A DNA stretch of 64,000 nt from Chloroflexota bacterium (GCA_965261345.1 OZ253449.1:1024001-1088000), one strand, 5' to 3'; shown: positions 539-41,887, counted from the stretch's first letter. Notes: generated by a model from the letters alone, not told the origin. Numbers and translations are program-made.

Positions 539-1405
539 TTGGGAATGTTGACGGCAGGTGAAATAGAACGGTACCGCGAACGTGGATTCATTTCGGTCTC
601 CAACGTACTCGCCCCGGCGACCATAAGCGAATTGCTCGCCGAGGTCGACCGGTTTATTGAAAAATCGCGTGAGATAACTGAAAACGATTCGGTCTTTGAC
701 CTCGAACCGACCCACAGCCGCGAGGTTCCAAGGCTGCGTCGGCTCAAGACCCCGATCCAGGTATCGCCGGTATTTGACCGGGTGATGCGCTCTAACGAAC
801 TGCTCGACCTGGTCGAACCGCTCTTGGGCAACCGGGGAATCCGTTACCGCAATGACAAACTCAATCTCAAGATCGCCGAGGTTGGAAGCCCGGTCGAATG
901 GCATCAAGACTATGCGTTCTACCCTCATTCCAATGACGATGTGCTCGCGATCGGGGTGTGTCTTGACGACTGCACCCTGGAGAACGGGTGCCTGCAGTGC
1001 ATCCCCGGCACCCATCGCCTGCCGGTGCTCGACCACCACAGCGATGGCGCCTTTGCCGGAGCGGTGAGCCCCACGGACGCCAATCTCGATCTCTCGCAGG
1101 CCGAACCGCTGGTCCTGAGCGCAGGCAGCATTTCGATTCACCACGCCCGCACCCTGCACGGGTCCGAGCCCAACACGTCGAATATGCCGCGCCGCTTGTG
1201 GCTGATCGAACTGACCGCGGCTGACGCCTGGCCGCTGATGGGCATGCCCGATATCGAAAAATACAAGACTTGGCTACTGCGTGGGCAAGAGCCCGAACAG
1301 ATGCGCTGCTCAGATCATCCGGTACGCATTCCGCTGCCGCAGCCGGCCACTGTGGGCTCGATCTATGAAGTACAGCGGCAGGCCCGCGAAACGATTTATC
1401 GCTGA
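539..1405 (+). CDS. Phytanoyl-CoA dioxygenase (PhyH) family Fe(II)/2OG dioxygenase
   Basis: WHQD (HxD) and distal H in TLHGSEPN; NGCLQCIPGTH motif. Confidence 0.9.
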   Translation: MGMLTAGEIERYRERGFISVSNVLAPATISELLAEVDRFIEKSREITENDSVFDLEPTHSREVPRLRRLKTPIQVSPVFDRVMRSNELLDLVEPLLGNRGIRYRNDKLNLKIAEVGSPVEWHQDYAFYPHSNDDVLAIGVCLDDCTLENGCLQCIPGTHRLPVLDHHSDGAFAGAVSPTDANLDLSQAEPLVLSAGSISIHHARTLHGSEPNTSNMPRRLWLIELTAADAWPLMGMPDIEKYKTWLLRGQEPEQMRCSDHPVRIPLPQPATVGSIYEVQRQARETIYR

Positions 1406-1435
1406 ACCGCTTGCCGCCCAGCTTGCAACCGGCCG

Positions 1436-2248
1436 GTGATGCCTAATCCCGGACGCGAGGGGTTCATCCGCAAAACGGAGGCCGAACTGGCATCCTTGCG
1501 GAGTTCCGGAAAAATCCTATCCAGCGCCCTTGAGGCCGTCCAAGCGGCGATCGCGCCGGGGGTAACCGGCTGTGACCTGAACGCATTGGTCACTGGAGTG
1601 ATCACCGCCGCTGGGGCTACGCCGAGCTTTCTGGGCTACGCGCCCTATGAGCAGGACAACCCCTTCCCGGGGGCGATCTGCTACTCAGTCAACGAAGTGG
1701 TCGTACACGGAATTCCCGACGGTCGCGCACTCAAGATCGGCGACATAGTAACGATCGATGTCGGAGTCGATTACCAGGGAATGAAATCGGACGCGGCCTG
1801 GACCTGGGGAGTGGGAGAAATATCGAGTCAGGCCCGGGCGCTGCTGGCCACCACCCGGGCGGCCCTGGGCGATGCAATCGGCATCTGCCGGGCCGGAACG
1901 CGGGTCGAGCAAATTTCCCGCCGTATAGAAAAGCGCGTAAACCGCGCCGGATTCTCTCCGGTGGCGGCGCTCGGCGGACACGGCGTCGGCCACATGATCT
2001 GGGAACCACCACATATCCCCAACCGCGCCGTCGGGGCTCCGCGCACGCCAATCGTTGCCAACTCCACCTTTTGCATCGAGCCGATCGTCTCGGCCGGTTC
2101 CGACCAGGTCCTTACCGCCGCCGACGGGTGGAGCGTCTACACCAGCGACGGGAGCTTGGCCGCCCATTTCGAACACACGCTCGCCTGGACCAATGGGCAA
2201 CTGGAAGTGCTTACCCGGTTCAATGCCGCCCCGACCTCGGAGGATTGA
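1436..2248 (+). CDS. map: Type I methionine aminopeptidase
   Basis: SVNEVVVHGIP, DIVTIDVG, GHGVG, CIEP and AAHFEHT metal-binding motifs. Confidence 0.92.
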   Translation: MMPNPGREGFIRKTEAELASLRSSGKILSSALEAVQAAIAPGVTGCDLNALVTGVITAAGATPSFLGYAPYEQDNPFPGAICYSVNEVVVHGIPDGRALKIGDIVTIDVGVDYQGMKSDAAWTWGVGEISSQARALLATTRAALGDAIGICRAGTRVEQISRRIEKRVNRAGFSPVAALGGHGVGHMIWEPPHIPNRAVGAPRTPIVANSTFCIEPIVSAGSDQVLTAADGWSVYTSDGSLAAHFEHTLAWTNGQLEVLTRFNAAPTSED

Positions 2249-2251
2249 CTG

Positions 2252-3580
2252 ATGGCGGTAACCGTCGCATTCATTGGGGCGGGCAGCCTGGGCTTTACGC
2301 GACGGCTGATTGCCGACTTGTTGAGCGTGCCCGAACTGGCCGACACACGATTCGTCCTCCACGACATCGATCCGGTCGGGCTATCGATGGTTGCCGAGCT
2401 CTGCCGGCGCGAGATCGAACTCTCGGGCCTCAAAGCCCAGGTGGTTAGCGAGGGCGACCGCCGGGCAGCTCTAAAAGACGCAGATTACGTAGTCAACTGC
2501 GCCCGCATAGGCGGACTCGAGGCTTTTGCCCTCGATATCGAAATTCCGCTCCGCTACGGGGTCGACCAGTGTGTCGGAGATACGATTTGCGCCGGCGGAA
2601 TTATGTACGGGCAGCGCTCGATCCCCAAAATCCTGGATTTTTGCGCCGATATCGCAACCTGCGCCAAGCCGGGAGCGCTCCTGCTCAACTACGCCAATCC
2701 GATGGTCATGAACACTTGGGCAGCGCTCGACTATGGCAATGTCGAAGTCGTCGGGCTCTGCCACGGTGTACAGGGTGGACAACGACTGATTGCGCGCGCC
2801 CTGGGGGCCGAACGCAAGGATGATGTCGAAATCATCTGCGCCGGAATCAATCATCAGACCTGGTATCTGAGCATCATCTGGCAGGGACGGCAAATCGCCG
2901 GCGAAGAGCTGTTGGCGGCCATGCGGGTCGATCCCGAGATAGCTCTTCGCGAACCGGTGCGACTCGATGTGCTGGAGCGTTTCGGCTATTTCTCCACGGA
3001 ATCCAACGGGCATCTCTCGGAGTATTTACCCTGGTACCGCAAACGGCCGGGCGACATGCCCAAATGGATCGGCAGCGATCACTGGATTGACGGCCGGACC
3101 GGAGGCTATCTCGATCACTGCCGCAAACGCAACCAGACATTTGCCGCCGATTACCAGAAACTACTTTCGGATGCGCGACCGATCGATACCCGGGAACGTT
3201 CCGACGAACACGGCTCCTTCATCATCGAGGCGCTGGAGACCGGACGACCCTACCGCGGCCATTTCAACGTGCGCAACGCCGGGACAATCTCCAACCTACC
3301 CCACGATTGCGTCGTCGAGGTCCCAGGCTACGTTGACCGCCACGGGATAGCAATCGGCCAATTGGGCGACCTGCCGTTGGCTTGCGCGGCCACCTGTCAG
3401 GCCTCCATCGACGTGCAGCGGATGGCCAAAGAAGCAGCCGTTACCGGCGACCGCGAGCTGCTGCGGTTGGCGATGCTGCATGACCCGCTGGTAGGCAGCG
3501 TCTGCACGCCAGACCAGGTTTGGGCAATGACCGACGAGTTGCTCACGGCCCAGGCCGCCTGGCTGCCGCAATACGGCTAG
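2252..3580 (+). CDS. melA: NAD-dependent glycoside hydrolase family 4 (alpha-galactosidase MelA-like)
   Basis: FIGAGS, QCVGDT, NYANP, GLCHG, AGINH and TESNGHLSEY motifs. Confidence 0.85.
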   Translation: MAVTVAFIGAGSLGFTRRLIADLLSVPELADTRFVLHDIDPVGLSMVAELCRREIELSGLKAQVVSEGDRRAALKDADYVVNCARIGGLEAFALDIEIPLRYGVDQCVGDTICAGGIMYGQRSIPKILDFCADIATCAKPGALLLNYANPMVMNTWAALDYGNVEVVGLCHGVQGGQRLIARALGAERKDDVEIICAGINHQTWYLSIIWQGRQIAGEELLAAMRVDPEIALREPVRLDVLERFGYFSTESNGHLSEYLPWYRKRPGDMPKWIGSDHWIDGRTGGYLDHCRKRNQTFAADYQKLLSDARPIDTRERSDEHGSFIIEALETGRPYRGHFNVRNAGTISNLPHDCVVEVPGYVDRHGIAIGQLGDLPLACAATCQASIDVQRMAKEAAVTGDRELLRLAMLHDPLVGSVCTPDQVWAMTDELLTAQAAWLPQYG

Positions 3581-3685
3581 CCGCCGCATCGGCGGCGGCA
3601 CCCGGGCACGGGGTTAGCGGCGGGTCAACCCGCCCAACTGGGGTTCGCCGGAGTGCGGCGGTGATATTGCCCGGTCATGACCGCC

Positions 3686-4486
3686 TCAGCACCCCAGGCG
3701 CTCGACCAGGAATTGCCGCGACGAAGCCAAGCAGTCAAAGGGGTCACGCCGACACTGATCCTGCTCGATGATGTAGAACTCGGTCCCGGCGGTTTTGGCC
3801 GCCGCCAAGATCGTCTCCCAATTGAGCAGGCCCTCGCCCACCGGAGCCCAGATCGGACCCGGCCGGCCACCCGGATCCTCGGGCGGAAAGACCTGGGCGT
3901 CCTTGCAGTGCAGGTAGCGGGCGCGCTTGCCCAAACGCTCGATGATCGCCGCCGGATCGGCACCGGTAACCGCGGCCCAATAGACGTCCAGTTCGATGAA
4001 CAAATCGCTGTTGGCGATGAGATAGTCCATGCCGTTGGTTCCGGCAAAGTAGACAAACTCGTGCGAATGATTGTGATAGCACAGATCCAGGCCGGCGGCG
4101 GACAGTTTTTCACGCACGGCCTGCGAATCCTGCAAGTAGCGCCGATAACCATCGAAGTCACGATATTCGTATTCGTCAAAGATGATTGGCGTCGAAACCA
4201 TCTGGCAACCCAGGGTCAGGAGGAAATCAATCTCAGCCTGGGTGTCGTCGCGCAGGCCCCCAAACCGTCGGTGCGCACCAATCGCAGAGAGGCCGTGGTC
4301 ATCGAGCATCGCTCGCGCAACCGCCGGGGTGGTGTCGGCATCGGGTCCCTCAACTGCTGCTACGGCCGAAAACTGGACGTGCTCAAATCCGATTCCGGCC
4401 ACTTTGTGCACGGTCGCGTGCAGGTCGGACTGGTTGGTTGTGTGGTCGGAGACCGTATATAGCTGGGCGGCGATTTTGTTCATCAT
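3686..4486 (-). CDS. Sugar phosphate isomerase/epimerase (xylose isomerase-like TIM barrel)
   Basis: QLYTV, YHNHSHEF, ELDVYW, HCKD, VGEG and IIEQD motifs. Confidence 0.88.
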   Translation of the reverse strand: MMNKIAAQLYTVSDHTTNQSDLHATVHKVAGIGFEHVQFSAVAAVEGPDADTTPAVARAMLDDHGLSAIGAHRRFGGLRDDTQAEIDFLLTLGCQMVSTPIIFDEYEYRDFDGYRRYLQDSQAVREKLSAAGLDLCYHNHSHEFVYFAGTNGMDYLIANSDLFIELDVYWAAVTGADPAAIIERLGKRARYLHCKDAQVFPPEDPGGRPGPIWAPVGEGLLNWETILAAAKTAGTEFYIIEQDQCRRDPFDCLASSRQFLVERLGC

Positions 4487-5077: not shown

Positions 5078-6103
5078 TCAATGGTGGTGGTGCGATTCGT
5101 GGTCGCGGTAGTGGGCGGCCAGCAGATCTCCACCCCAGTCGTTGCGGAAATCACGCCAAACCGAGTGGATGTGATTGGAATTGTTCTGGGTGTTGTCGTA
5201 CTCGATGACAAATCCGGGAGATGCGATCGAATAGTAATGCCCAAACCCTTTGCGCTCTGGTCCGGCCCAAGCAAAAGCGGTCCCGGCGAGTTCGTTTCGC
5301 TCGATCCGCCGCCATTGCGTTTGGGCAACCGGATCGCTGGATCGATCCACGTAGTGCTTAGTGAGCCTAGCCAGACGGGCGCGTTGTTCGCCATCGAGTT
5401 GATCGTAGCCGATGCCGTGCGGGGTCATTCCGGGTTTGACCGTACGGTAATTGAGGGTGAGGATGTCGGTCGGCGCCACCGGGTCGACGATCGCTATTTT
5501 TTTCTGGTCGTTGCTAAGCGATCCGAGCAGCGCTCGGGCCAAGTCTTCTTCCAAGTCAAGGATGCGATGGCCGATTTTTGGGCCATGCTTGACCTCGGCT
5601 GGATTCGCGCCCAGAAAAAGCGGAACCGGGGCGATGAAGTCACCATCGATCACATTGACGTTCACGCCGATGTGGTGGCCGCCAATTTTTATTCCCCAGG
5701 GCTGGCGACCGCCGGGTTGACCGAAAACCGAGAAATAATAGTACTCGGCGTTGCGGGCCAAAAACACGCTCGTGTCGAGATGGAGGCCGGCGATTTTTTC
5801 CCACTCTCGCAGGATCGTTTCGTGCTCGATTATTTCGCGAGCTTGCCGCGCCGCCCGAATCGAAAGACTCGCGTCCAGCAGCGCCTTGGCCAGCGCCTGC
5901 TGTTTATTGTCCATTGCGTCCAAGCGCAATCCGGAACGATGGGTGGGAGTGTAGTACCACTCGTAACGCAACCCGTCATCGAAATCATGTTGTGCTAACT
6001 CGAGCTGCTCCTCGGTAAGCGAATCAAGAAATTTCTGGGCTGCCGCGGCGATCCATGTCGCAGCCTCCGGAGTCCGATCGATCGTGCTCGTCTCTATTGC
6101 CAT
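5078..6103 (-). CDS. DUF3500 domain protein
   Basis: W.YTP..R.G, GHH, FLGANP and IEYDNTQNNSNHIHSVWRD..ND.G motifs; GGAGG RBS upstream. Confidence 0.88.
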   Translation of the reverse strand: MAIETSTIDRTPEAATWIAAAAQKFLDSLTEEQLELAQHDFDDGLRYEWYYTPTHRSGLRLDAMDNKQQALAKALLDASLSIRAARQAREIIEHETILREWEKIAGLHLDTSVFLARNAEYYYFSVFGQPGGRQPWGIKIGGHHIGVNVNVIDGDFIAPVPLFLGANPAEVKHGPKIGHRILDLEEDLARALLGSLSNDQKKIAIVDPVAPTDILTLNYRTVKPGMTPHGIGYDQLDGEQRARLARLTKHYVDRSSDPVAQTQWRRIERNELAGTAFAWAGPERKGFGHYYSIASPGFVIEYDNTQNNSNHIHSVWRDFRNDWGGDLLAAHYRDHESHHHH

Positions 6104-30355: not shown

Positions 30356-30951
30356 CCCACACTTTGCACGGACCCGTTCAACCGGCCGCTATCGGCCGCC
30401 AATTTCGGTTATCGGTTGCAGCCTGACCGACTGACGCTCGCCTGACCGGCTCCCCCGCCCCCGCTGTAAGCCGTTTGTAGGGTGATGGCCGGGCATTGGG
30501 CCCGGCTTCGCCGGGGATCTGAGCGCTTTACGCTGATCGCTGCGGGGCCGGCGCCGGCCCCGCGCTCAGGCTCCCGGGGCGCGCGCCTTTATCGGGGTCC
30601 GGCGCATGAGCCGGGCCAGTATTTGCGCGAACTCGTCCTGGTACGGATAGGCGGAAGAGAACTCCAGCAGGATCCGGCGGGTGCTCTGCCTTACCCGCAC
30701 CGCCACCTTCAGGTAGCGCCGGCGGATGGTTCCCGCCAGCGGCCGCGGCGACGGGGTCGGTCGATCGGGCTCGCGATCCTGCCCGGCCGCGGCGGGATCG
30801 TCTATTCCCAGTCGCCGCAGGGCGGAGCAGAGCACGTAGGCAAGACCGGAGAAGTAAAGCCTGATCTGGTTGGCCATGAACCTCGAGGCGCTGGCGCGGT
30901 CGGCATGGAGCTGCAACTGCTCGTAGATCCGGTTTTCGCAATCGCCGCGGG

Positions 30952-31260
30952 TCCACCCCGTCAACTGCGGGTGATATACGTCCCGCCACAGTCAGCATCC
31001 GCGTAATCCACCCCTACCACCCCTTGTACGGCAGGCGCTACCGGGTCATTAACGTCGCCGCCGGCTGGGGCCGGGAGAGGATCTTCTGCCACGACGGGGA
31101 CCGCCGCGTCGTCACCTTCCCGGTCGGATTTACCGACTACCTGCCCCGGGACCCGTTCGTTGTCGCCGCCGGGGGCCGATCGCCGTTCCGGGCCCGGGAT
31201 CTGCTGGAGCTTGCCGAGTTTGTCGAGAGCCTTGCCAAAGATGCTGGAGACGTAAAGTGA
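30952..31260 (+). CDS. DUF5372/Y4bD-like small protein lacking a standard start codon upstream of its conserved motif in the integrated state
   Basis: IHPYHPLYGRR...P..FTD....DPFVVAAGGRSPFR..DLL.LA; the frame is open back to the left junction with no ATG. Family assignment is from motif recall. Confidence 0.7.
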   Translation, partial: STPSTAGDIRPATVSIRVIHPYHPLYGRRYRVINVAAGWGRERIFCHDGDRRVVTFPVGFTDYLPRDPFVVAAGGRSPFRARDLLELAEFVESLAKDAGDVK

Positions 31261-31389
31261 TTGGAGCCGCCGCTGTAAACGTAATTACGACCGTAGCCTA
31301 CATCCTGACTGCGATTAACAGGATGTTGCTACAGATGGTAGTACGCATTGCGGAGGCCGAACGGTGCCGACCAAAGGGCCGTCAGGGCG

Positions 31390-31418
31390 TTGACAGATCC
31401 GATGGATGGGGCAACAAT
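31390..31418 (+). promoter_or_regulatory. Putative sigma70 promoter for the HTH-recombinase operon
   Basis: TTGACA - 17 nt - AACAAT, followed by GGAGGA RBS and ATG at 31451. Confidence 0.5.
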
Positions 31419-31450
31419 GGATTTGCATATTGCCCGCATGGAGGACTGCG

Positions 31451-31903
31451 ATGGCGACCGATGGCGAGAGCAAGCAGGAGGTCCTGCGGCGCAGCGGGGC
31501 GCTCAACCCCCACCCGGAACGGGTGCGCGACGATCTCTTCTGCGAGCATCCCTTCTTCGACCCCTGTGACCTGGTGCAGGTGCGCTACGAGATGCTTAGC
31601 CGGGTCTGCCGCGACGGGATGTCGATCGCCCAGAGCGCCAGGACCTTCGGGTTCACCCGCCCCACCTGGTACAAGGCCAGGCGGGCGTTCGCCGAGCGCG
31701 GCCTGGCCGGCCTTGTATCCGAGCGCCCCGGTCCGCGCCATGCCCGCAAGCTGGGGCCCGAGATCATGGAGTACCTGTTGGCGGTGCGGGCCGAGCGGCC
31801 CGGGATCGGGTCGCGGCGCCTGGTCGGGATGGTCGAGGAGCGCTTCGGCCTGTCGGTGCATAGGCGCAGCATCGAGCGGGCGCTGCGGCGGGCAAAAAAT
31901 TAA
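31451..31903 (+). CDS. Helix-turn-helix protein of the recombinase element
   Basis: G.LNPHPE.V.D.LF....FFDP.DLVQV.YEML, FGF.RPT.Y and GL.GL...RPGPR..RKL. Confidence 0.82.
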   Translation: MATDGESKQEVLRRSGALNPHPERVRDDLFCEHPFFDPCDLVQVRYEMLSRVCRDGMSIAQSARTFGFTRPTWYKARRAFAERGLAGLVSERPGPRHARKLGPEIMEYLLAVRAERPGIGSRRLVGMVEERFGLSVHRRSIERALRRAKN

Positions 31904-32170
31904 CCCGCCCGGATCTGGATCCGGGCGCTGCCCCAACCACCGCGACCGCGACCTACGAGCGCCTGCGGCGCCAGGCGCTATGGCCCGACGGGGCCGCCGA
32001 CTGGCGCCGGATGGAGCAGGTGGGCCGGGGCGGACTGGCGGCCCTGCTTGCCAACGACGGCTGCGAACCGACCCTCCGCCGGGACCCGGTGGCAGCGCCG
32101 CCGGGCGCTGCGGCGGAGATCGTGGACGTCCTGCTGGAACTGGTGACCGCGCCCCGGTCGGGGCGGTCCG

Positions 32171-34237
32171 ATGACCGATCAGACCCGCGGCAAGGTGACC
32201 GCCGACCACCTCGACCGCATGGCGTACCTGTACGTGCGCCAGTCCAGCCTGCGGCAGGTGGTAGAGCATGGCGAGAGCACCCGCCGCCAGTACGACCTGC
32301 GGGGTCGGGCCATCTCCCTGGGCTGGGATGCCGACCGGATATGCGTGATTGACTCCGACCTTGGGCGTTCGGGGGCCGACTCGGACCGCGAAGGCTTCCG
32401 ACGCCTGGTTACCGAGGTGTCCCTGGGCAACGTCGGGATGGTGCTGGGGCTGGAAGTCTCGCGCCTGGCGCGCAATAACGCCGACTGGCAGCGCCTGCTG
32501 GAGCTGTGCGCGCAGTCGGACACCCTGATCCTGGACGAGGATGGGATATATGATCCGTCCAGCTTCAACGACCGCCTGCTGCTGGGCCTGAAGGGCACGA
32601 TGTCGGAAGCCGAGCTGCACGTTATGAAGTCCCGTCTGCGGGGTGGACTTCTGGCCAAGGCGCGGCGCGGCGAGCTCAAGATCGCGCTGCCGGTGGGATA
32701 CTGCTACGACCCTCTCGACCGCTGGGTGCCGGACCCCGACGCCCAGGTGCAGGAGACCCTGCGCACGTTCTTTGACGTCTTCCAGCGCAGCGGCTCGGCG
32801 CGGGCTGTGGTGGCGTACTTTAATGCGAACGGTCTGCTGATCCCGCTGCGGTCCCGCAAGGGCCCGGGCAAGGGCGAACTCTTCTGGAACAATCTCGATC
32901 ACGGCCGTGCGCTGTCGATCCTGCACAACCCCGGTTACGCCGGGGTTTACGCCTACGGACGCACCCAGCGGCGGCGGCGCGGCGGCAGCCGCCGGTCAGC
33001 CAAGGCGCCGCGCAGCGAGTGGATCGCCCTGATCAAGGACCACCATCCCGGCTACATTTCCTGGGAGCGATTCGAGGCCAACCAGGCCCAGCTGGCGCGC
33101 TCGGCCAGGGCCCATGGCGCCGACCGCCGCCAGGGACCGGCGCGCGAGGGGACGGCCCTTCTGCAGGGGGTGGCCATCTGCGGGAAATGCGGGAACCACC
33201 TGCAGACGCGCTACGACGGCTCCCGCACCAGGCCCCGCTACGTATGTCACCGCGACGGGATCGCCAACGCCAGACCGATCTGCCTCTCGATTGCCGGCGC
33301 GGGGATCGACCGGGCCGTAGCCGATCTGGCTCTCGAACTGATGACTCCGCAGGTACTGCAACTGGCGCTTGGCGTACAGGACGAACTGGAGCGCCGCCTC
33401 AGGGAGGCCGACGGCCTGCGGTCCCGGGCCGTGCAGCGCGTCCGCGAGGCGGCCGATCTGGCCGGCCGCCGCTACCGATTGGCCGATCCGCACAACCGCA
33501 TGGTCGCCGACGTGCTGGAGGCCGAGTGGAACGCCTGCCTGCAGCGCCTCGAGCAGGCGGGCGCTGAGTACGAGCGCCGGCGCGAGCAGGATCGGCAACG
33601 GTTCGACAGTCAGCAGCAGCGGCGGATCGCCGAACTTGCGACCAACTTCCCCAGGGTGTGGAACGATCCCGGGACCCCGGCCCGGGAGCGCAAGCGCATG
33701 CTGCGGCTGCTGGTCGAGGACGTTACGGTGTCAAGGGGCCAGGAGGAGATCAGGCTGGGAGTGCGTCTGCGCGGCGGGGTCGCCCGCGAGCTGACCGCGC
33801 CCCTGCCGATGTCGGGCGCCCAGCTGTACCGCACCCCGGTCGAGACCGTCGCCCTGGTCGACGAAGCGCTTGAAGGCCACACGATCGGCGCGATCGTGGA
33901 GATCCTGCGGCAGCGCGATCACCGCCCGCCGCGGGGCGCGCGCTACACCCGCACCGCCGTGCAGGCCATGATCTACGCCCACGGGCTGCGCACGCGCTAC
34001 CAGCGTTTGCGCGATCGGGGCCTGCTTAGCGTGTACGAGGTCGCCGGGCGGCTTGGGATATCTGAGAGCGGAGTCCGCGACCGGCGGCGGCGCGGGCTGC
34101 TGGTGGGCCATCTGGCCGACGACAAGGGCGTGCGTCTTTACGAATGGCCGCCGGGCGGGGCCGGTTCATCTCATGCCGCCGGGGGGACCGCCGACGAACT
34201 GTCGCAAGTTAGCAATGAGGCGCAGTATGCAACCTGA
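32171..34237 (+). CDS. Large serine recombinase (resolvase + recombinase + Zn ribbon domains)
   Basis: AYLYVRQSS, D.DLG.SG, EVSRLARN, LHNPGYAG.Y.YG, HPGYISWE and CGKCG motifs. Confidence 0.93.
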   Translation: MTDQTRGKVTADHLDRMAYLYVRQSSLRQVVEHGESTRRQYDLRGRAISLGWDADRICVIDSDLGRSGADSDREGFRRLVTEVSLGNVGMVLGLEVSRLARNNADWQRLLELCAQSDTLILDEDGIYDPSSFNDRLLLGLKGTMSEAELHVMKSRLRGGLLAKARRGELKIALPVGYCYDPLDRWVPDPDAQVQETLRTFFDVFQRSGSARAVVAYFNANGLLIPLRSRKGPGKGELFWNNLDHGRALSILHNPGYAGVYAYGRTQRRRRGGSRRSAKAPRSEWIALIKDHHPGYISWERFEANQAQLARSARAHGADRRQGPAREGTALLQGVAICGKCGNHLQTRYDGSRTRPRYVCHRDGIANARPICLSIAGAGIDRAVADLALELMTPQVLQLALGVQDELERRLREADGLRSRAVQRVREAADLAGRRYRLADPHNRMVADVLEAEWNACLQRLEQAGAEYERRREQDRQRFDSQQQRRIAELATNFPRVWNDPGTPARERKRMLRLLVEDVTVSRGQEEIRLGVRLRGGVARELTAPLPMSGAQLYRTPVETVALVDEALEGHTIGAIVEILRQRDHRPPRGARYTRTAVQAMIYAHGLRTRYQRLRDRGLLSVYEVAGRLGISESGVRDRRRRGLLVGHLADDKGVRLYEWPPGGAGSSHAAGGTADELSQVSNEAQYAT

Positions 34238-35594
34238 TCCCGCGGACAGTATTCCAGTTCGTACAGGTCGCGTCCCGCTACCTGCTCGGTCGGCAGGCTG
34301 GTTACGACGAAGCGGGCGTTGGGCCGCGGCGGCCGGGGCGCGCCGTCCCGGCCGGTATGCCCGGGCAGGTACTCGGCCTTGCCCACCACCCGTCGGGTCC
34401 TGGACCAGGTCCCGGCAAGGGTCTGGTGGGTAAAGCCGCGGAAGCGCCGCGAGGGCTCCCCGCTTGCAAGGCAGCGCCGCCGCGAGCGCTCGAGCGGGCG
34501 GGCGATCTTTTTCTCCAGGCGCGGGTTGCGCGCCAGGCCGAAGAGGTAGTCGATCCCCTCCCGTTCGCACCAGGTCATGATCGGATCGCGGCCAAAGCCC
34601 GAGTCGCCGCGCAATACGATCTGCGTTTCGGGCCAGGCGGAGCGGATCTTCTCTACCAGCGGCGCGATCTCGGACACCGCATCCGACCCCGGGGCGCTAT
34701 CGGAGGGGCGCAGGCGGCAAAGCAGCAGATGCTCGCCGCAAAACACGTACAGCGGTAGATAGCAATAGGAGTCGTAATACCCGTGGAAGAACCGTCCTTC
34801 TTGCTTGCCGTGCAGCTTCACGTCGGTGGCGTCCACGTCCAGGACGATGCGCGCCGGGGGAGCGGGATGAGATTCCAGGAAGACTTCGACCAGTAGGTCG
34901 TCCAGCTGAGCGAAGTTGGCCGCGATCCGGCGGTAGCGGTCCTTGGACGCTTCATCGGGACGCGAGTTCTCCAGGCGGCACAGCGTCGCCGCCGATCCGA
35001 GTGCCGAACCGTCGCTGCGCTCCAGCAGCATTCCCAGCAGCGGATCGCTGCGCAGGCGGTTGTGATCTACAAGGTCCTCGTAACCGCCGCAGATCCCGTA
35101 CACACGCTGGCGCACCAGGTCCAGGACGGAGTGGACTACGTAGGCCGGGTTGCGGTGGTCGACAAAGCAGGCCGCCGCGCGCGCGAGCAGGTCGATGAGG
35201 TTATCTGCCTCGCGCAGCAGGGCAAGCCCGCCGTCGGCGGAGATATCGCCGCCATTGAAGTTGCCCACCATTCGGCGGCGGCCGAGCCGTGAGAACTCGA
35301 GCTGGACCGGGTTAGACTCTGCCATCAGAAACGCCCTGCGATGGTTTGTGTGTTGTAACCCAATTATCGTCGGGCGTCTCTGTTTTTAAGGAGTGGGGTG
35401 GTACCGAAGACCCGTCCGGCAGCGCCCTCAAGCGGTGGTGTCGGAGCCTGAATCGGCGCTCCCCGAGCCCGGGACCGCAATAGCACTCTGCGAACCGGCA
35501 AACGCCGCCGGATTGGGCTCGAACCAGCCCTGTCAGTCCCTGGGAGCGGTTGACTCCGGGGCAGCGTGGCGGCAAGGCTCGTGCAATATCCGGG

Positions 35595-37341: not shown

Positions 37342-38772
37342 CTACCGCCTGCCATCGGCGCAATGGCTGGTCCAATATATTGACTCGACAAGGAAAGTGC
37401 CTAGCGCCTCCATCAATTCGGCGCGGATCGAGCGGTGGTCCGGATCGGCCCACAGATTTATCAATTCCTCCGGGTCGTTTCGCAGATCAAACAACTGTCC
37501 ATCAGGCGGGCCCAAAAGGTGGACCAGCTTCCAGTCCCGCGACCGCACCATAGAAACGAAGTCGCACCCGAGTCCCACCACTTCCTCGCGGCCATGCTCG
37601 GAAAACACATAGTCGCGGCCCGCAAAATCCTCTCCTTGCAGCGCCGCGATCAAGGAGTCGGCCTCAAAGGCCTCCGGAAAATCGGCGCCGGCGATTTCGA
37701 GGATCGTTGCCCCTAGATCGAACCATTGGGTCAGGGCCTCGACCTTGCGCCCGCCGGAAAATCGCCCGGGCGCCCAGACAATCGCCGGGACCCGCGTGAC
37801 CGAGTCGTACATCGTCCACTTCTGCGAACAGAAGTGATCGGTGAGGGTGTCGCCGTGGTCGGAGGTAAAGATGATCACCGTGTCTTCAAGCAAGCCGCGA
37901 TCGGCAAGCGAGCGGCGGATCGCGCCAATTTGGGCGTCGATTAGCGAGATATTGGCCATGTAGAAACGGCGCTGGCGCTGGCGGTGGGCTTCGGCCGGGA
38001 AGGGCACGAACTTGATTGAGTCGTGGGCGACCTCGGCGTTGTGCTGGGCCATATCGCGCAGCAACTGCGGATGTTGGTCGCGTTCGGAGAATCGCAACGG
38101 GGTCAGCGCGAACTCGGTGTCCTCGTAGAGCTCCAACCAGTCCGGGGTTGGGTCATACGGCGGGTGCGGCCCAGGGAAACCGACGGTGAGAAAAAACGGT
38201 TTTTCCTGCTCGTAGTTTGCGACCCACTCGCACGCCGCCCGACCCAGGAAGTTGTCGGGGTGCATGTCGGGGTCCTTTTCCCAGGCGAAAGCTCCCAGCG
38301 CAATCCAGAAATCCGGGCGCTTTTCAAGGTCTTCGCGCTGGTACTTGGTCATCCCGCGATCGGCCAGCGCCTTGTCCCATTCATCCCGGTAGGCGCGCCA
38401 TTGACGAAAACGCTGTTTGTTCTCGACGTTGAAACGGTAATCAAACTGACCGGAAGCGTCAAACGGCGTAAAGTGCATCTTGCCTACGTTGGCGGTGTGA
38501 TAGCCGGCCCGGGCGATATTGGGAACCCAGGTCTCCTGCCAAGGGTCGCCGTTACGCAGCATTCCGGATGTATGCGGCCACCTTCCGCTAAAGAGGCTGC
38601 AGCGGGCCGGCCCGCATGCTGGGGCATTGACGAAACAGTTGGAAAGCGTAACGCCCTCGGCGACCAGCTGGTCCAGGTGCGGTGTTTGGGCGTAGTCGTA
38701 GCCGAGCGCGGCAATCGTATCGAAGCGCTGCTGATCGGTAATGATTAGGACGATGTTGGGGCGATCTTGCAT
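37342..38772 (-). CDS. Sulfatase (Cys-type), paralog of the adjacent gene
   Basis: Same motifs; start set at MQDRPNIV by alignment with the paralog. Confidence 0.9.
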   Translation of the reverse strand: MQDRPNIVLIITDQQRFDTIAALGYDYAQTPHLDQLVAEGVTLSNCFVNAPACGPARCSLFSGRWPHTSGMLRNGDPWQETWVPNIARAGYHTANVGKMHFTPFDASGQFDYRFNVENKQRFRQWRAYRDEWDKALADRGMTKYQREDLEKRPDFWIALGAFAWEKDPDMHPDNFLGRAACEWVANYEQEKPFFLTVGFPGPHPPYDPTPDWLELYEDTEFALTPLRFSERDQHPQLLRDMAQHNAEVAHDSIKFVPFPAEAHRQRQRRFYMANISLIDAQIGAIRRSLADRGLLEDTVIIFTSDHGDTLTDHFCSQKWTMYDSVTRVPAIVWAPGRFSGGRKVEALTQWFDLGATILEIAGADFPEAFEADSLIAALQGEDFAGRDYVFSEHGREEVVGLGCDFVSMVRSRDWKLVHLLGPPDGQLFDLRNDPEELINLWADPDHRSIRAELMEALGTFLVESIYWTSHCADGRR

Positions 38773-39110
38773 AGAACCGAGTTGCGGAATGCGGGGGAAC
38801 CGTGTTTGAACGATTTTGTCCTTGCGGGTCGGCGGAGTCGGCGCGCAGGCGGCCGGGCTAAATTCCCTCCCGCCGGTCGACCAACTTGTCCGATCGGCGC
38901 GCCCAACCCGTCTGTATTGGCCTGTCCGCGAGATTCCGGTCGGCGCCGGATTTCGACCGCTCCAGCCCACCACCATCCCGACGGCCAACTGCTGCCAAAA
39001 TCAACAAGGGGCAATCGCCCGGCGGGCCGTTCGTTAGCCGCGGTCGACACCCGCACCGGCTGCCCGTCTAACTTGAATTTGCCGCGAACAAACAGAAAGC
39101 GTTAACTGCC

Positions 39111-39545
39111 GTGCCTTGGTGGGGATGGATCGCCCTCGGGGGCGGGTTGATATTGACCGAATTGCTAGTCGGCGGGCAGCTGTATCTCTTGTTTGCGGCG
39201 ATTGCCGCCCTGGCCGTCGGAGTCGTGGTGGCAATATTCGGGGGCACTCCGCTCTGGCTGCAGTGGACGATCTTTGGTATTACCGCCCCGGTCCTGGTTT
39301 TGGGGTTGCGCAGGCAGGCCTACGCCAAATTCAACCGCTTCGGCGGTTACCAAAACATAGCCGGCGAATACGCGATCGTGGATGCGGAAATCGCCCCTGG
39401 CGAGCATGGCCTGGCCGAATTGCACGGGGCCCAATGGGCAGCCCGGAACATTGGCGCAACCCCACTTGCGGCCGGCCAACGGGTTAGGGTTGCCGGCGTG
39501 GATCAATTAACCCTTAACCTTGTTGAGGAAGCAGGCGACGATTGA
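39111..39545 (+). CDS. NfeD family membrane protein
   Basis: TM helices then a short OB fold (G..ELHGAQWAA); sits upstream of an SPFH gene. Confidence 0.85.
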   Translation: MPWWGWIALGGGLILTELLVGGQLYLLFAAIAALAVGVVVAIFGGTPLWLQWTIFGITAPVLVLGLRRQAYAKFNRFGGYQNIAGEYAIVDAEIAPGEHGLAELHGAQWAARNIGATPLAAGQRVRVAGVDQLTLNLVEEAGDD

Positions 39546-40501
39546 CGCCAGGAGTGGGTAACGTGGATATTTCGGTTCTAGTCCTTTTGGTATTTCTGGC
39601 GATCGTGGGAATCGTGGTGCTGGCCAAAACCGCGATCATCGTGCCGCAGCAGTCGGCCTACGTAATGGAAATGCTCGGACGCTACCAAGCCACCTACCAA
39701 GCCGGGTTCCATATCGTCGTTCCGTTCATTCAACGGGTGGCCTACAAACTATCGCTAAAAGAAGAAGCAATTGACATCCCCGAGCAGGTCTGCATTACCC
39801 GCGACAACGTCCAGGTTGGGGTTGACGGGGTCATCTACATGCAGGTCCTCGATGCGCGGGCTGCTTCCTACGGGATCGCCAACTTCCGCTTTGCCATCAC
39901 CCAGTTGGCCCAGACCACACTCCGTAGCGAGGTCGGCAAGCTCGACCTGGACCGAACGTTTGAGGAACGCTCATCGATCAACCTGTCGGTCGTAGCCGAA
40001 CTTGACAAAGCCTCCGCGGCCTGGGGGGTCAAGGTGCTCCGCTACGAAATTCGCAATATCACCCCACCCTCTGACGTGCTTTCGGCAATGGAAAAACAAA
40101 TGCGCGCCGAACGCGAAAAACGGGCGGTGGTCCTTACCTCGGAGGGCGAACGCGACGCCGTAATCAACGCCGCCGAAGGCGCCAAGCAGCGGGTTGTACT
40201 GGAGTCGGAAGCTGCCCGGCAACAGCAGATCAACGAAGCCGAGGGGGAGGCCGAGGCGATATTGGCCATCGCCAACGCGACCGCCGACGGACTGCGGGCC
40301 ATTGCCACGGCGGTGTCCAACGACGGTGGCCAGGACGCCCTGCGGCTTAGGATCGCCGAACAGTACGTATCCGAATTTGGGAAGCTGGCGCAAGCGGGCA
40401 ACACCTTTGTTGTGCCCGCCAATATGACCGATCTGGCCTCTATGATCGCCCTGGCCACGTCAATGGTCCGCGGCAGCGGCGATACCGATTCCGCAGCGTA
40501 A
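39542..40501 (+). CDS. SPFH/stomatin-like (paraslipin, QmcA-like) protein
   Basis: ITRDNV, QLAQTTLRS..G, WGVKVLRYEI and MEKQMRAEREKRA motifs. Confidence 0.92.
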   Translation: MTPGVGNVDISVLVLLVFLAIVGIVVLAKTAIIVPQQSAYVMEMLGRYQATYQAGFHIVVPFIQRVAYKLSLKEEAIDIPEQVCITRDNVQVGVDGVIYMQVLDARAASYGIANFRFAITQLAQTTLRSEVGKLDLDRTFEERSSINLSVVAELDKASAAWGVKVLRYEIRNITPPSDVLSAMEKQMRAEREKRAVVLTSEGERDAVINAAEGAKQRVVLESEAARQQQINEAEGEAEAILAIANATADGLRAIATAVSNDGGQDALRLRIAEQYVSEFGKLAQAGNTFVVPANMTDLASMIALATSMVRGSGDTDSAA

Positions 40502-40822
40502 AGGCCGATGCTGATCGCAAGTCCGGCTCCGGGAAAAGGTCGGGCCGGCCGGTAGTTGACACAACCCGTTGAGCAGGCAACCGGCAATCTGCAAGGCCGC
40601 GGGAATCTCGGCCGCTACCGGTTGCGTGTACGCCGGCGACCTTCGCCCCGAGCTCAAATGGACTCCGCGCATCTAGTGCCAAGCCGCCGCCGATCCGCCT
40701 TCGCGCCTTGCTGCAACCTTCAGCCGCTAGCGCGCGTACCATACGACGACGCGATCGGGCGATTCAGCCTCAGAGTAAAGTTAACCGGCAGGCTGTAGAA
40801 CTTATAAAGAAGGTCCGCTCAA

Positions 40823-41887
40823 ATGAGCCTATTTAAACGAATCATTACCGGGCTCCTGATGGTCCTAGTGCTTGCCGCGATCGCCGCCTGCGACGAGCAG
40901 GAAGATGCGCGCGAAAGCACTCTTGATGACATCCTCGAGAGGGGCAATCTGGTCTGCGGAATCAAGGCCGACACGCCCGGATTCGGCGTGCTCAATCCGG
41001 ACGGAACGGCCGAAGGCAACGACGTCGACTACTGTCGAGCTCTGGCCGCAGCCATTTTTGGCGACCAATCCAAAGTCGAGTTCCAGGAAGCTACCTCGGG
41101 TAACCGTTTCGAATTGCTGGCCGCCAAGGAAATTGACGTCTTAATCCGCACCACCACCTGGACCGCCAGCCGGGACGCGGACCTCAAAGTCGCTTTTGCC
41201 CCGACCACGTTCTACGACGGCGCCGGAATCATGGTTAAAGCCGATGCGGGCCTATCCAGCGTTAACCAGCTTGGCGGCGCGACAATCTGCATCCTGGACG
41301 GAACCAGCACTCAGGGTGCGGTTTCCGACTACTTCGCCGAGCAGGAGCTCACCTACGAAGAGCTCACGTTCCAGGCGAATCCGGAGTTGCGGGCCTCATT
41401 CATCAGCGATCAATGCGATGCCTGGTCGTCTGACAAATCCCAGCTCGGTGGACACCAGTTCACCCTCACCGCAGACGGTGTCAACGCGGTAGTTCTACCG
41501 GAAACCCTCTCCAAGGAACCTCTCGGACCGAGCGTCCGTGACTACGACTCGGAATGGGAAGACGTGGTTCGCTGGGTGGTCAACGGGATGATCATCGCCG
41601 AGGAGCAGGGCGTAACATCGGCCAACGTCGGCCAGATGGCTGCCAACCCGCCGAATAACACCGTCGCCCGCCTGCTGGGAGTCGGTTTCTCAGGTGGCGC
41701 CCCCAGCAACCTTGGCATAGGCCACGGCAAGATCCCCGGCACGTTCATGCAGAGCGTAATCGCCCAGGTTGGAAATTACGGGGAAACCTATGATCGGACC
41801 CTAGAGCGGGTCGGCCTCACCCGCGCCGGATCCCCGAACGCCTCGTACCAGGACGGCGGGCTACTCTACGCACCGCCAATGCGGTAG
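40823..41887 (+). CDS. General L-amino acid ABC substrate-binding lipoprotein (AapJ/BztA-like)
   Basis: Lipobox IAAC; DVDYCRALAAAIFGD, SKEPLGP, VGNYGE and GGLLYAPP motifs. Confidence 0.9.
   Translation: MSLFKRIITGLLMVLVLAAIAACDEQEDARESTLDDILERGNLVCGIKADTPGFGVLNPDGTAEGNDVDYCRALAAAIFGDQSKVEFQEATSGNRFELLAAKEIDVLIRTTTWTASRDADLKVAFAPTTFYDGAGIMVKADAGLSSVNQLGGATICILDGTSTQGAVSDYFAEQELTYEELTFQANPELRASFISDQCDAWSSDKSQLGGHQFTLTADGVNAVVLPETLSKEPLGPSVRDYDSEWEDVVRWVVNGMIIAEEQGVTSANVGQMAANPPNNTVARLLGVGFSGGAPSNLGIGHGKIPGTFMQSVIAQVGNYGETYDRTLERVGLTRAGSPNASYQDGGLLYAPPMR

Follow-up and report, generated by a model that had tools for sequence, protein, structure and literature searches.

The attachment site of a compact serine-recombinase element probably lies within its own DUF5372 gene, whose product can probably be made only after excision

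A 3.3-kb element moved by a large serine recombinase (LSR) in a Chloroflexota genome carries the body of its DUF5372 gene at its left end and an outward-facing translation start, in frame with that body across the crossover core, at its right end. We propose, at a probability of about two in three, that attP lies inside this gene, that excision joins the start to the DUF5372 body, and that the product binds the LSR and reports the excised state. On the sequence evidence, DUF5372 can probably be made only once the element is excised and circular.

All coordinates are positions in the window, the whole stretch of 64,000 nt that was analysed (Chloroflexota bacterium GCA_965261345.1 OZ253449.1:1024001-1088000). 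The element occupies 30950-34240, with genes in the order DUF5372, HTH, small ORF, LSR; a copy of the CG core borders it on either side, and the gene that it interrupts codes for an IS1380-type transposase. The interrupted gene is antisense to the element. The features are as follows.

30566-30947, minus strand: 3' part of the interrupted IS1380-type transposase (target) gene; PF13701 DDE_Tnp_1_4, profile positions 328-432 of 435, E 2.3e-23
30948-30949, no strand: left 2-bp crossover core CG; sole attL/attR identity in the target-restoring register, also based on the empty site and the start of the X1 contig
30949-31260, plus strand: DUF5372 gene body, startless when integrated, stop at 31258-31260; from ORF scan, Pfam and AF2 model
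30950-30971, plus strand: left (P') arm of attP; 14 nt followed by ACTGC at 30964-30968, mirroring the right arm
31390-31418, plus strand: sigma-70-like promoter match 5' of the HTH gene; TTGACA, 17 nt, AACAAT
31406-31903, plus strand: HTH protein gene, start approximate; HTH_32/HTH_29/HTH_23
31903-32174, plus strand: third small ORF, no Pfam family; 3' end overlaps the LSR start (ATGA)
32171-34237, plus strand: large serine recombinase, 688 aa; Resolvase, Recombinase and Zn_ribbon_recom domains
34213-34240, plus strand: right (P) arm of attP; GCAGT at 34222-34226 followed by 14 nt
34217-34229, plus strand: outward-facing translation start; GAGG at 34217-34220, 6 nt, ATG at 34227-34229
34241-34242, no strand: right crossover core CG; same register, X1 contig and empty-site basis
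34243-35325, minus strand: 5' part of the interrupted transposase gene; PF13701, profile positions 2-331 of 435, E 2.1e-100

The LSR has a catalytic domain (PF00239, E 1.1e-18), a recombinase domain (PF07508, E 6e-19) and a zinc ribbon (PF13408, E 2.2e-5) that at 25.2 bits falls just below the cut-off of 25.3. The HTH protein resembles the N-terminal region of IS481/IS630 transposases, with scores below the NCBIfam cut-offs, and the third ORF has relatives with 54% identity over residues 1-50 in two other loci (L009 and L044). The consensus-based promoter match is the only one in the element, against 0.3 expected.

The ends, the core and the joining register were established in silico. The left junction, attL, reads ..cgccg[CG]GGTCC.. 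and attR reads ..GATCC[CG]cggac.., where the bracketed core is at 30948-30949 and 34241-34242 respectively. Two different IS types in this genome contain the element, and in both of them joining at CG recovers the motif Y-C-P-R-G-x-x-E-N; the register is fixed by a congener without the element (G047), in which the uninterrupted site is ..ctcgCCG-CG-CGGacag... A 6-nt CCGCGG junction was rejected, as it would frameshift both target IS types and conflict with the G047 site. Crossover therefore occurs at the 2-bp core without target duplication, as seen in the window element, the G047 empty site and the relatives. One assembled contig, from run X1, spans exactly 30948-34242 at a depth about 2.7 times that of its flanks, which fits the three element copies found in the genome; there is also one decayed copy. 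The presence of near-identical copies inside two different IS types argues for past mobility of the element.

In the integrated state the DUF5372 frame is open from 30880 to its stop at 31258-31260, and the left arm of attP is read as Ser-Thr-Ala leader codons. The PF17342 (DUF5372) match (67.9 bits, cut-off 25; E 7.9e-19) starts at the codon at 31003, residue 18 of the translation from 30952, and covers positions 1-77 of the 78-position profile. The first ATG, GTG or TTG of the frame is the TTG at 31024, and all canonical starts therefore fall inside the domain. The window sequence thus bears out the initial annotation, which had found no such codon in the leftmost ORF before the IHPYHPL motif and had placed this TTG at the final residue of that motif. 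It had also described GAGG-7nt-ATG at the right end: the GAGG, the ATG at 34227 and its overlap with the last LSR codons (stop TGA at 34235-34237) stand, and the spacer is corrected to 6 nt. Its proposal that joining the ends through CG puts ATG 34227 in frame with DUF5372 is upheld by the G047 site and by the restored target motif; this agreement of frame follows from the CG-core register. The core lies five codons downstream of the start in the joined gene. Judged from sequence, the split arrangement of start and body is more than chance, since it recurs in 45 of 48 related elements.

These relatives come from the window's phylum, a Chlamydiae MAG, Mesorhizobium and Rhodococcus plasmids, and metagenomes. 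The 80 metagenome loci, which form one clade, were chosen by the peptide pattern [VF]RVTHPFH, so that conservation of the corresponding codons is by construction. Wherever their sequence extends far enough, the order DUF5372, HTH, LSR is kept. The ends follow the rule GCAGT, N14, 2-bp core, N14, ACTGC, with imperfect inverted-repeat arms, and a symmetric attP was recognised by eye in 11 loci. Under an automatic rule 42 of 47 loci had the same core on both sides, and the count became 45 of 48 elements after three loci (L037, L044 and L142) were resolved by hand; the cores are mostly TT, with CA in two and TG in one, as against CG in the window. Two loci, L050 and L046, represent a type with DUF5372 and LSR and without HTH; L050 has no recognisable right arm, and L046 has a GTG in frame, yet unequal cores (GG and AG). 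More widely, at E up to 0.001 the DUF5372 family has about 800 representative proteins; it also has hits in 130 plasmid records, with no match in phage records. A scan of genome contigs with the single DUF5372 protein gave one locus (L011), and a word-index protein search gave nothing beyond the window's own 78-aa ORF.

When the ends of homologous elements are joined in silico, as the initial annotation had suggested, the in-frame start proves to be conserved in 40 of 42 distinct right arms: 29 have ATG and 11 have GTG right behind GCAGT, and the other two arms have TTG or ATG one codon later, still in frame. The junction frame is not random among homologs; a random frame would have counted against the initial annotation. 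We note that the start directly follows the motif within a 30-nt site geometry; the in-frame relation results from this, and frame alone is not independent evidence. At the mirror position in the left arm no start codon occurs (TGA in 39, CGA in 19, others in 14), and a Shine-Dalgarno word precedes the start in all 43 distinct right arms. The word GGTGCAGT is also the symmetric recognition word of the recombinase, so that part of the Shine-Dalgarno-like sequence may serve binding.

The left side of the split is conserved as an open leader: over 83 distinct leaders, 1402 codons in all, stops number 0 in the gene's own frame and 7 and 73 in the two alternative frames. The frame with 7, the +1 frame, is itself almost stop-free. 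A scan that allowed all offsets placed the HP.HP codons 45 nt from the left motif in 78 loci, 42 nt in nine and 51 nt in one, each distance being a multiple of 3. The variable part of the leader lacks codon periodicity (entropy 1.39/1.35/1.38 at the three positions); this part stays open yet is not selected as protein. A periodicity test on the conserved motif was discarded as circular, the metagenome loci having been selected by the same peptide. Between the upstream stop and the conserved Arg-Val codons, 52 of 79 integrated loci have no ATG, GTG or TTG, and 75 of 79 have no ATG. The flank provides an in-frame start-like codon in 12 of the 79. A GTG or TTG occurs within the leader in 15 of the 79 loci, and could allow some translation.

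The AF2 model of DUF5372 (mean pLDDT 85.7) is a predicted small SH3/KOW-like barrel with a C-terminal helix. In a Foldseek comparison with the PDB nothing matched at E up to 0.001, and the top-ranked entries were the KOW/SH3-like barrels OapB, NdhS and PsaE, at E 0.03 or weaker. NCBIfam and PHROGs yielded nothing usable, and across Foldseek/PDB, NCBIfam and PHROGs no sequence or fold relation to known recombination directionality factors (RDFs) was found. The predicted LSR-DUF5372 complex scored 0.76 in three runs, and the best of three controls scored 0.00. Of 80 solved complexes, 58 attained this mark, as did 2 of 110 mismatched pairs; these counts hold just roughly here because the complex was modelled from alignments made for this analysis. 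The runs share at least 74% of contacts, with a partner pLDDT of at least 71. The modelled interface comprises LSR residues 336-341, 390-410, 476-514 and 519-539, and DUF5372 residues 20-25 and 67-98. In this prediction DUF5372 sits where the zinc domain of the LSR meets its coiled coil, the region to which directionality factors bind; PMC11795197 places all modelled RDFs at this meeting point of zinc domain (DBD2) and coiled coil. The suggestion in the initial annotation that the protein may be a directionality or integration factor draws support from the predicted placement.

A different account of these data would have DUF5372 made whether the element is integrated or excised, by way of an internal or non-canonical start, the right-arm GAGG-ATG being simply recombinase site and LSR codons. 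Such a start could be the Val codon ahead of the motif where this reads GTG, an occasional GTG or TTG within the leader or, for the window, ATA or ATC. The Val codon is GTG in 46 of 88 loci and annotators use this GTG, as in one locus (L052) whose CDS begins at 6040, within the match. Many database DUF5372 homologs start right at the motif, which may reflect either the gene callers or a subfamily that has a start of its own; GGTGCAGT is symmetric in both arms, and the leader lacks codon periodicity. Against this, the Val codon is no start in the other 42 loci (GTA 20, GTC 14, ATC 6, ATT 1, GTT 1), the window itself having GTA, and a Shine-Dalgarno word precedes the Val GTG in only 2 of 44 distinct GTG leaders. 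Nor do the leaders supply a conserved internal start before HP.HPL, which the initial annotation had named as contrary evidence: among the 83 distinct leaders an in-frame ATG occurs in none, and GTG or TTG in 14. The right arm keeps ATG or GTG where its left-arm mirror never does, and the two arms without a start at +1 have one in frame at +4. Where the right-arm motif starts at or after the LSR stop, and the codons are therefore outside the LSR gene, the ATG with (G/A)AGGTG persists in 11 of 11 loci; leader length, moreover, varies in 3-nt steps only. We consider an internal start distinctly unlikely. Still less credible, and in our judgement very improbable, is an outward start that serves the integrated state, for example by translation into the flank, with the open leader a by-product of G+C-rich sequence. 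ATG 34227 does open a 68-codon frame into the flank (part of the ORF 34053-34433), and the near absence of stops in the +1 leader frame would suit it. However, in 45 of 48 elements the phase between this start and the left-end gene is constant, and the flanks are antisense strands of unrelated transposase families, so that no conserved flank product is possible.

The split might also be real and DUF5372 a classical excision factor, supplied in trans by a rare circle or by leaky flank starts and causing burst excision of other copies. The predicted interface coincides with the RDF hotspot, genomes hold several copies (three plus the decayed one here, and four PF17342 matches in the genome G339), and the start-like codons that 12 of 79 flanks provide could act in this way. 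On the other hand, an RDF made by the circle would inhibit the circle's own reinsertion, and 52 of 79 integrated copies lack any canonical start. We regard this as an improbable explanation, if a less improbable one than an internal start.

We therefore return to the reading in which excision assembles the gene. The element would be a compact cut-and-paste unit, moved by its LSR and inserting at a 2-bp core within transposase genes, whose attP sits within its own gene, DUF5372. The first part of the gene, from the Shine-Dalgarno word through the start codon and a further four and a half codons, would be in the right arm, and the remainder would start in the left arm. Since the halves of an integrated copy are 3.3 kb apart and face away from each other, the DUF5372 frame has nothing to start from. 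Excision would join the arms, so that the LSR gene leads directly into an intact DUF5372 gene, the stop of the one often overlapping the start of the other; in the circle, translation from the right-arm codon would yield DUF5372, which would bind the LSR and signal to the recombinase that the element is excised. If a classical excision factor arose only in the excised state, integrated copies would be locked in place and reinsertion hindered, and our guess, which we hold only slightly more readily than its opposite, is that DUF5372 favours integration or blocks re-excision.

Assembled contigs of four runs (X1, X5, X7 and X8) contained neither a circle junction nor a precise empty site. X5 shows an odd skip from 30940 to 34603. 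The attP form was found in 0 of 84 related loci, with no terminal overlaps in element-sized contigs, and in 0 of 401 genomes of the phylum and 0 viral contigs. Contigs drop rare forms, and the missing circle junction therefore tells little either way.

At somewhat below even odds, we suggest more broadly that the element represents a widespread 3.3-kb family in which directionality is set by topology only, through a cofactor assembled by excision and acting at the LSR hotspot, with no regulator. On this reading the family lives almost exclusively inside transposase genes and would be a parasite of insertion sequences. The split architecture offers a testable answer to the question of what lets transposon-type serine recombinases decide, when no host-linked signal guides them, whether to excise or to insert: if it is true, the cofactor gene is a translatable unit solely in the excised state. 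It would also provide an initial functional lead for DUF5372, and may explain why annotation pipelines give this family arbitrary or absent starts. Genome engineering could make use of so compact an LSR, given its small cognate cofactor and defined 2-bp core, and the split gene by itself keeps a simple record of the recombination state.

A full-text literature search found no paper under the name DUF5372, and no relevant report on serine-recombinase junctions or IS targeting, though the family may already be included in the LSR catalogue (PMC10083194) or in the RDF 'virtual pulldown' work. The closest comparison is with Tn4451/Tn4453, for which Lyras and Rood are said to have described, in 2000, a promoter that arises where the ends meet in the circle; the recombinase there is TnpX. 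Both systems are LSR-moved and have a circular intermediate that creates an expression signal missing from the integrated form. In Tn4451/Tn4453, however, two promoter halves are joined for the recombinase gene itself, whereas the window element would join a ribosome-binding site and start codon to the body of another gene, that of a predicted recombinase cofactor; the former is thus a switch of transcription, and the latter one of translation and coding sequence. In mycobacteriophage BPs and its relatives, integration-dependent immunity reportedly exchanges the 3' end of the repressor gene, and both forms are translated. Here too attP is inside a protein-coding gene and the free and integrated forms encode different products. 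The window element does not, however, have its attP in the 3' part of a repressor gene with both forms translated: it is the 5' end with the start that is removed, so that the gene would be switched on or off, and the predicted target of its product is a serine recombinase.

State-dependent promoter use is known in integrative elements, including ICEKp1, the Pcirc promoter of ICEclc and read-through in Tn916 (PMC13023037). According to that source, joining of the ends alters expression and biases towards reintegration; these ICEs differ in that they use tyrosine integrases and transcriptional control of int or transfer genes, with no split coding sequence described there. Finally, DUF5372 resembles the RDFs gp3 of phiC31, Bxb1 gp47 and SprB in being a small element-encoded protein, predicted to bind at the same LSR junction, but its expression would depend on DNA topology and not on a regulatory circuit, and its effect may be the opposite. 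Within circularisation-dependent gene control, what is new here, as far as the sequences reveal it, is the placing of start codon and gene body on opposite ends of the element.

The element at window 30950-34240 splits an IS1380-type transposase gene on the minus strand, whose PF13701 match is divided into positions 2-331 at 34171-35325 and positions 328-432 at 30566-30964. The genes carried by the element are as follows.

Within 30950-34240, plus strand: DUF5372 frame (PF17342, E 7.9e-19)
31406-31903, plus strand: gene for an HTH protein (HTH_32/29/23)
Between the HTH and recombinase genes, plus strand: ORF of roughly 90 codons without a family (third ORF)
Rightmost gene, plus strand: large serine recombinase (LSR) of 688 aa (Resolvase, Recombinase, Zn ribbon)

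The two ends share a CG core, at 30948-30949 on the left and 34241-34242 on the right. The initial annotation joined the ends across this single CG, a register that restores the sequence Y-C-P-R-G-x-x-E-N in both target IS types and is therefore retained; a 6-nt CCGCGG overlap was rejected because it puts both target genes out of frame. The congener G047, which has zero DUF5372 matches, carries an uninterrupted site consisting of left flank, CG and right flank, and one contig of sequencing run X1 starts exactly at 30948 and stops exactly at 34242, with a depth about 2.7-fold that of the flanks. In run X5, from a related organism, a 315-nt contig joins 30940 to 34603 and lacks the element together with 369 nt of the transposase gene, which is an in-frame loss within that gene and not a precise empty site. 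The core is CG in the window, where the attB core word forms an 8-nt palindrome, and TT in most relatives. Work on phiC31 and Bxb1 indicates that serine integrases join their sites without polarity when the central dinucleotide is palindromic.

The open frame of DUF5372 reaches back to 30880. As the initial annotation had observed, its earliest ATG, GTG or TTG is the TTG at 31024; this lies inside the Pfam domain, which begins with the codon at 31003. At the right end, GAGG, a spacer and ATG 34227 are arranged as annotated, except that the spacer is 6 nt and not 7 nt. This ATG lies eight bases upstream of the LSR stop and, as proposed, comes into frame with DUF5372 once the ends join in the single-CG register.

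Relatives were collected from a PF17342 search of 401 genomes of the window's phylum (18 matched, 12 above cut-off), one Chlamydiae MAG, two plasmids (Mesorhizobium and Rhodococcus), and 80 metagenome contigs plus one viral contig. The metagenome loci were picked by the peptide [VF]RVTHPFH and represent one clade, so that conservation of these residues is by construction. The gene order DUF5372-HTH-LSR is kept wherever the sequence reaches, with the HTH gene downstream in 74 of 82 loci (L051-L132) and the remaining 8 contigs stopping within about 420 nt. Truncated or interrupted copies occur at loci L056, L064, L081, L092, L095, L126 and L130. The ends follow a common rule: GAGGTGCAGT in the right arm, 14 nt, a 2-bp core, 14 nt, and ACTGC (or ACTAC, AATGC) in the left arm. 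The rule is self-checking, because the cores read at both ends have to match. They are equal in 42 of 47 loci by the automatic rule, in L037 and L044 after hand-corrected motif picks, and in L142 by hand, making 45 of 48. The exceptions are L038 (TT vs CG), probably a rearrangement between copies; L046 (GG vs AG); and L050, which has no recognisable right arm.

The initial annotation proposed joining homologous ends in silico to see whether the start codon is conserved, and we find that it is: directly after GCAGT there is ATG in 29 and GTG in 11 of 42 distinct right arms, and the other two have TTG or ATG one codon later, in frame. All 43 distinct right arms counted have a Shine-Dalgarno (SD) word ahead of the start, and no stop codons occur in the joined leaders among those listed from the automatic rule. 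GGTGCAGT is symmetric, and is thus probably a recombinase recognition word. The arms diverge exactly at the positions relevant to a start: the left arm's mirror codon is TGA in 39 cases, CGA in 19 and never a start codon, and the GAGG positions are far less conserved there than in the right arm. Nor does LSR coding account for the right-arm ATG and SD word, since ATG and (G/A)AGGTG are retained in the 11 loci whose motif begins no earlier than the LSR stop (as far as 79 nt beyond it).

Homologs were also predicted to lack an internal start. This holds for ATG, which is in frame in 0 of 83 distinct leaders (88 loci); GTG or TTG is in frame in 14 of the 83. In the integrated state, the stretch from the upstream in-frame stop to the conserved Arg-Val codons is free of ATG, GTG and TTG in 52 of 79 loci and of ATG in 75 of 79. 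The Val codon, often the annotators' start, is GTG in 46, GTA in 20, GTC in 14 and ATC, ATT or GTT in 8, and an SD word precedes the GTG Val codon in only 2 of 44 distinct leaders. Many database homologs, judged by their protein sequences, begin at the motif. We note that the gene is annotated erratically: for many plasmid matches no CDS is listed (PLSDB leaves out pseudogenes), and called CDSs (plasmid matches, and loci L051 and L052) use an internal GTG start and are named “DUF5372 family protein” or “Y4bD/Y4pK family protein”.

Over 1402 leader codons there are 0 in-frame stops, whereas the two alternative frames contain 7 and 73. In a scan open to all offsets, leader length varied by 3 nt only (45 nt in 78 loci, 42 nt in 9, 51 nt in 1); frame alone is not independent evidence, because the 30-nt geometry sets the phase once the start directly follows the motif. 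Codon periodicity is absent from the variable part, which, to judge from its sequence, behaves as a linker needing merely to stay open. The joined (attP) form was not found in any assembly searched (run contigs, related loci, phylum genomes and viral contigs).

The AlphaFold2 model of DUF5372, from a 42-row alignment, has a mean pLDDT of 85.7 with low confidence for the first ten residues, and consists of four strands forming a small barrel, followed by helices. A Foldseek search of the PDB gave zero matches with E of 0.001 or lower, and its top-ranked entries were KOW/SH3-like barrels. All three runs of the DUF5372-LSR complex model scored 0.76, compared with 0.00 for the highest-scoring of 3 controls. 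Of solved complexes, 58 of 80 reach the 0.76 mark, as do 2 of 110 mismatched pairs, rates that are approximate here because custom alignments were used. At least 74% of contacts are common to the runs, with partner pLDDT at least 71. The predicted interface comprises the HP.HP motif and C-terminal helix of DUF5372, and LSR residues 336-341, 390-410, 476-514 and 519-539, which correspond to the zinc ribbon and both coiled-coil feet. The predicted absence of the leader from this interface fits its lack of constraint. According to PMC11795197, all modelled recombination directionality factors (RDFs) bind the junction of the zinc domain and coiled coil.

The genome (2.39 Mb, one contig) has 3 copies of the element with 2 differing positions among them, two in the same IS type and one at the same codons of a 70%-identical IS. 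Outside the window, two of these copies form a head-to-head pair, the DUF5372 ends turned towards each other, in different IS types and only 1145 bp apart (G000:C1:33101-36393, minus strand, and 37539-40831, plus strand). A fourth copy (L009 about 979-4259; G000:C1 about 139,020-142,300) is 71% identical, has core TT, and sits in another transposase-like gene, IS110-type by eye; its ends still follow the split-gene rule. Its LSR gene aligns in two frames, indicating a probable frameshift. A truncated element in the same genus (L043, genome G098) has a 92%-identical DUF5372, an HTH protein that breaks off after residue 98, and no downstream LSR.

The element family sits in transposase genes, antisense to them (IS1380-type in the window), as observed in the window and at L041, L057, L059, L113, L118 and L045. 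The right flank of L038 (G187:C3) contains a wrongly oriented fragment of an IS21-like gene and adjoins the apparent inverted right end of a second element. Of ten right flanks tested, 5 have an rve integrase-core domain whose end coincides exactly with the junction, and the others gave an ISL3 transposase (1), HTH domains only (3) or nothing (1). The family resembles an insertion-sequence parasite that takes a conserved catalytic-motif codon block as its attB.

The HTH protein (31406-31903) resembles the N-terminal DNA-binding part of IS481/IS630 transposases (E 4e-13, far under family cut-offs), and IS481/IS630-like transposase genes are of the kind that the family targets. The window (31889-31927), L009 and L044 share CAAAAAAT-TAA as the end of the HTH gene. 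Next comes a hairpin that shows compensatory changes across loci, and the conserved part of the third ORF then continues in the -1 frame and lacks a start codon; at this border, ATGA or GTGA overlaps are seen instead in most other relatives. A programmed -1 frameshift may fuse the two proteins in this sub-clade.

The sole promoter-like site found is at 31390-31418, ahead of the HTH gene, and the third ORF stop and LSR start overlap. In the chromosomal state, transcripts would run past the LSR gene and out of the element, and the outward start would have nothing but a junk frame to open. Once the element is circular, that transcript, and ribosomes ending the LSR, would proceed into a complete DUF5372 gene; some relatives, such as L041, have an ATGA overlap at this joint. 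The predicted cofactor would then be made alongside the recombinase solely while the element is free. By reasoning rather than data, such wiring best fits a factor absent for excision and present for insertion, and a classical RDF fits it poorly.

A full-text literature search found no occurrence of “DUF5372”, and a literature search covering the articles themselves found no description of the split-start arrangement. PMC13023037 describes circularisation-dependent expression from a junction promoter in Tn4451, by promoter switching in ICEKp1 and ICEclc, and by read-through in Tn916, and in phage BPs attP lies within a repressor gene (PMC4557955). What is new relative to these known forms is that the translation start is split from the body of a predicted recombinase-cofactor gene.
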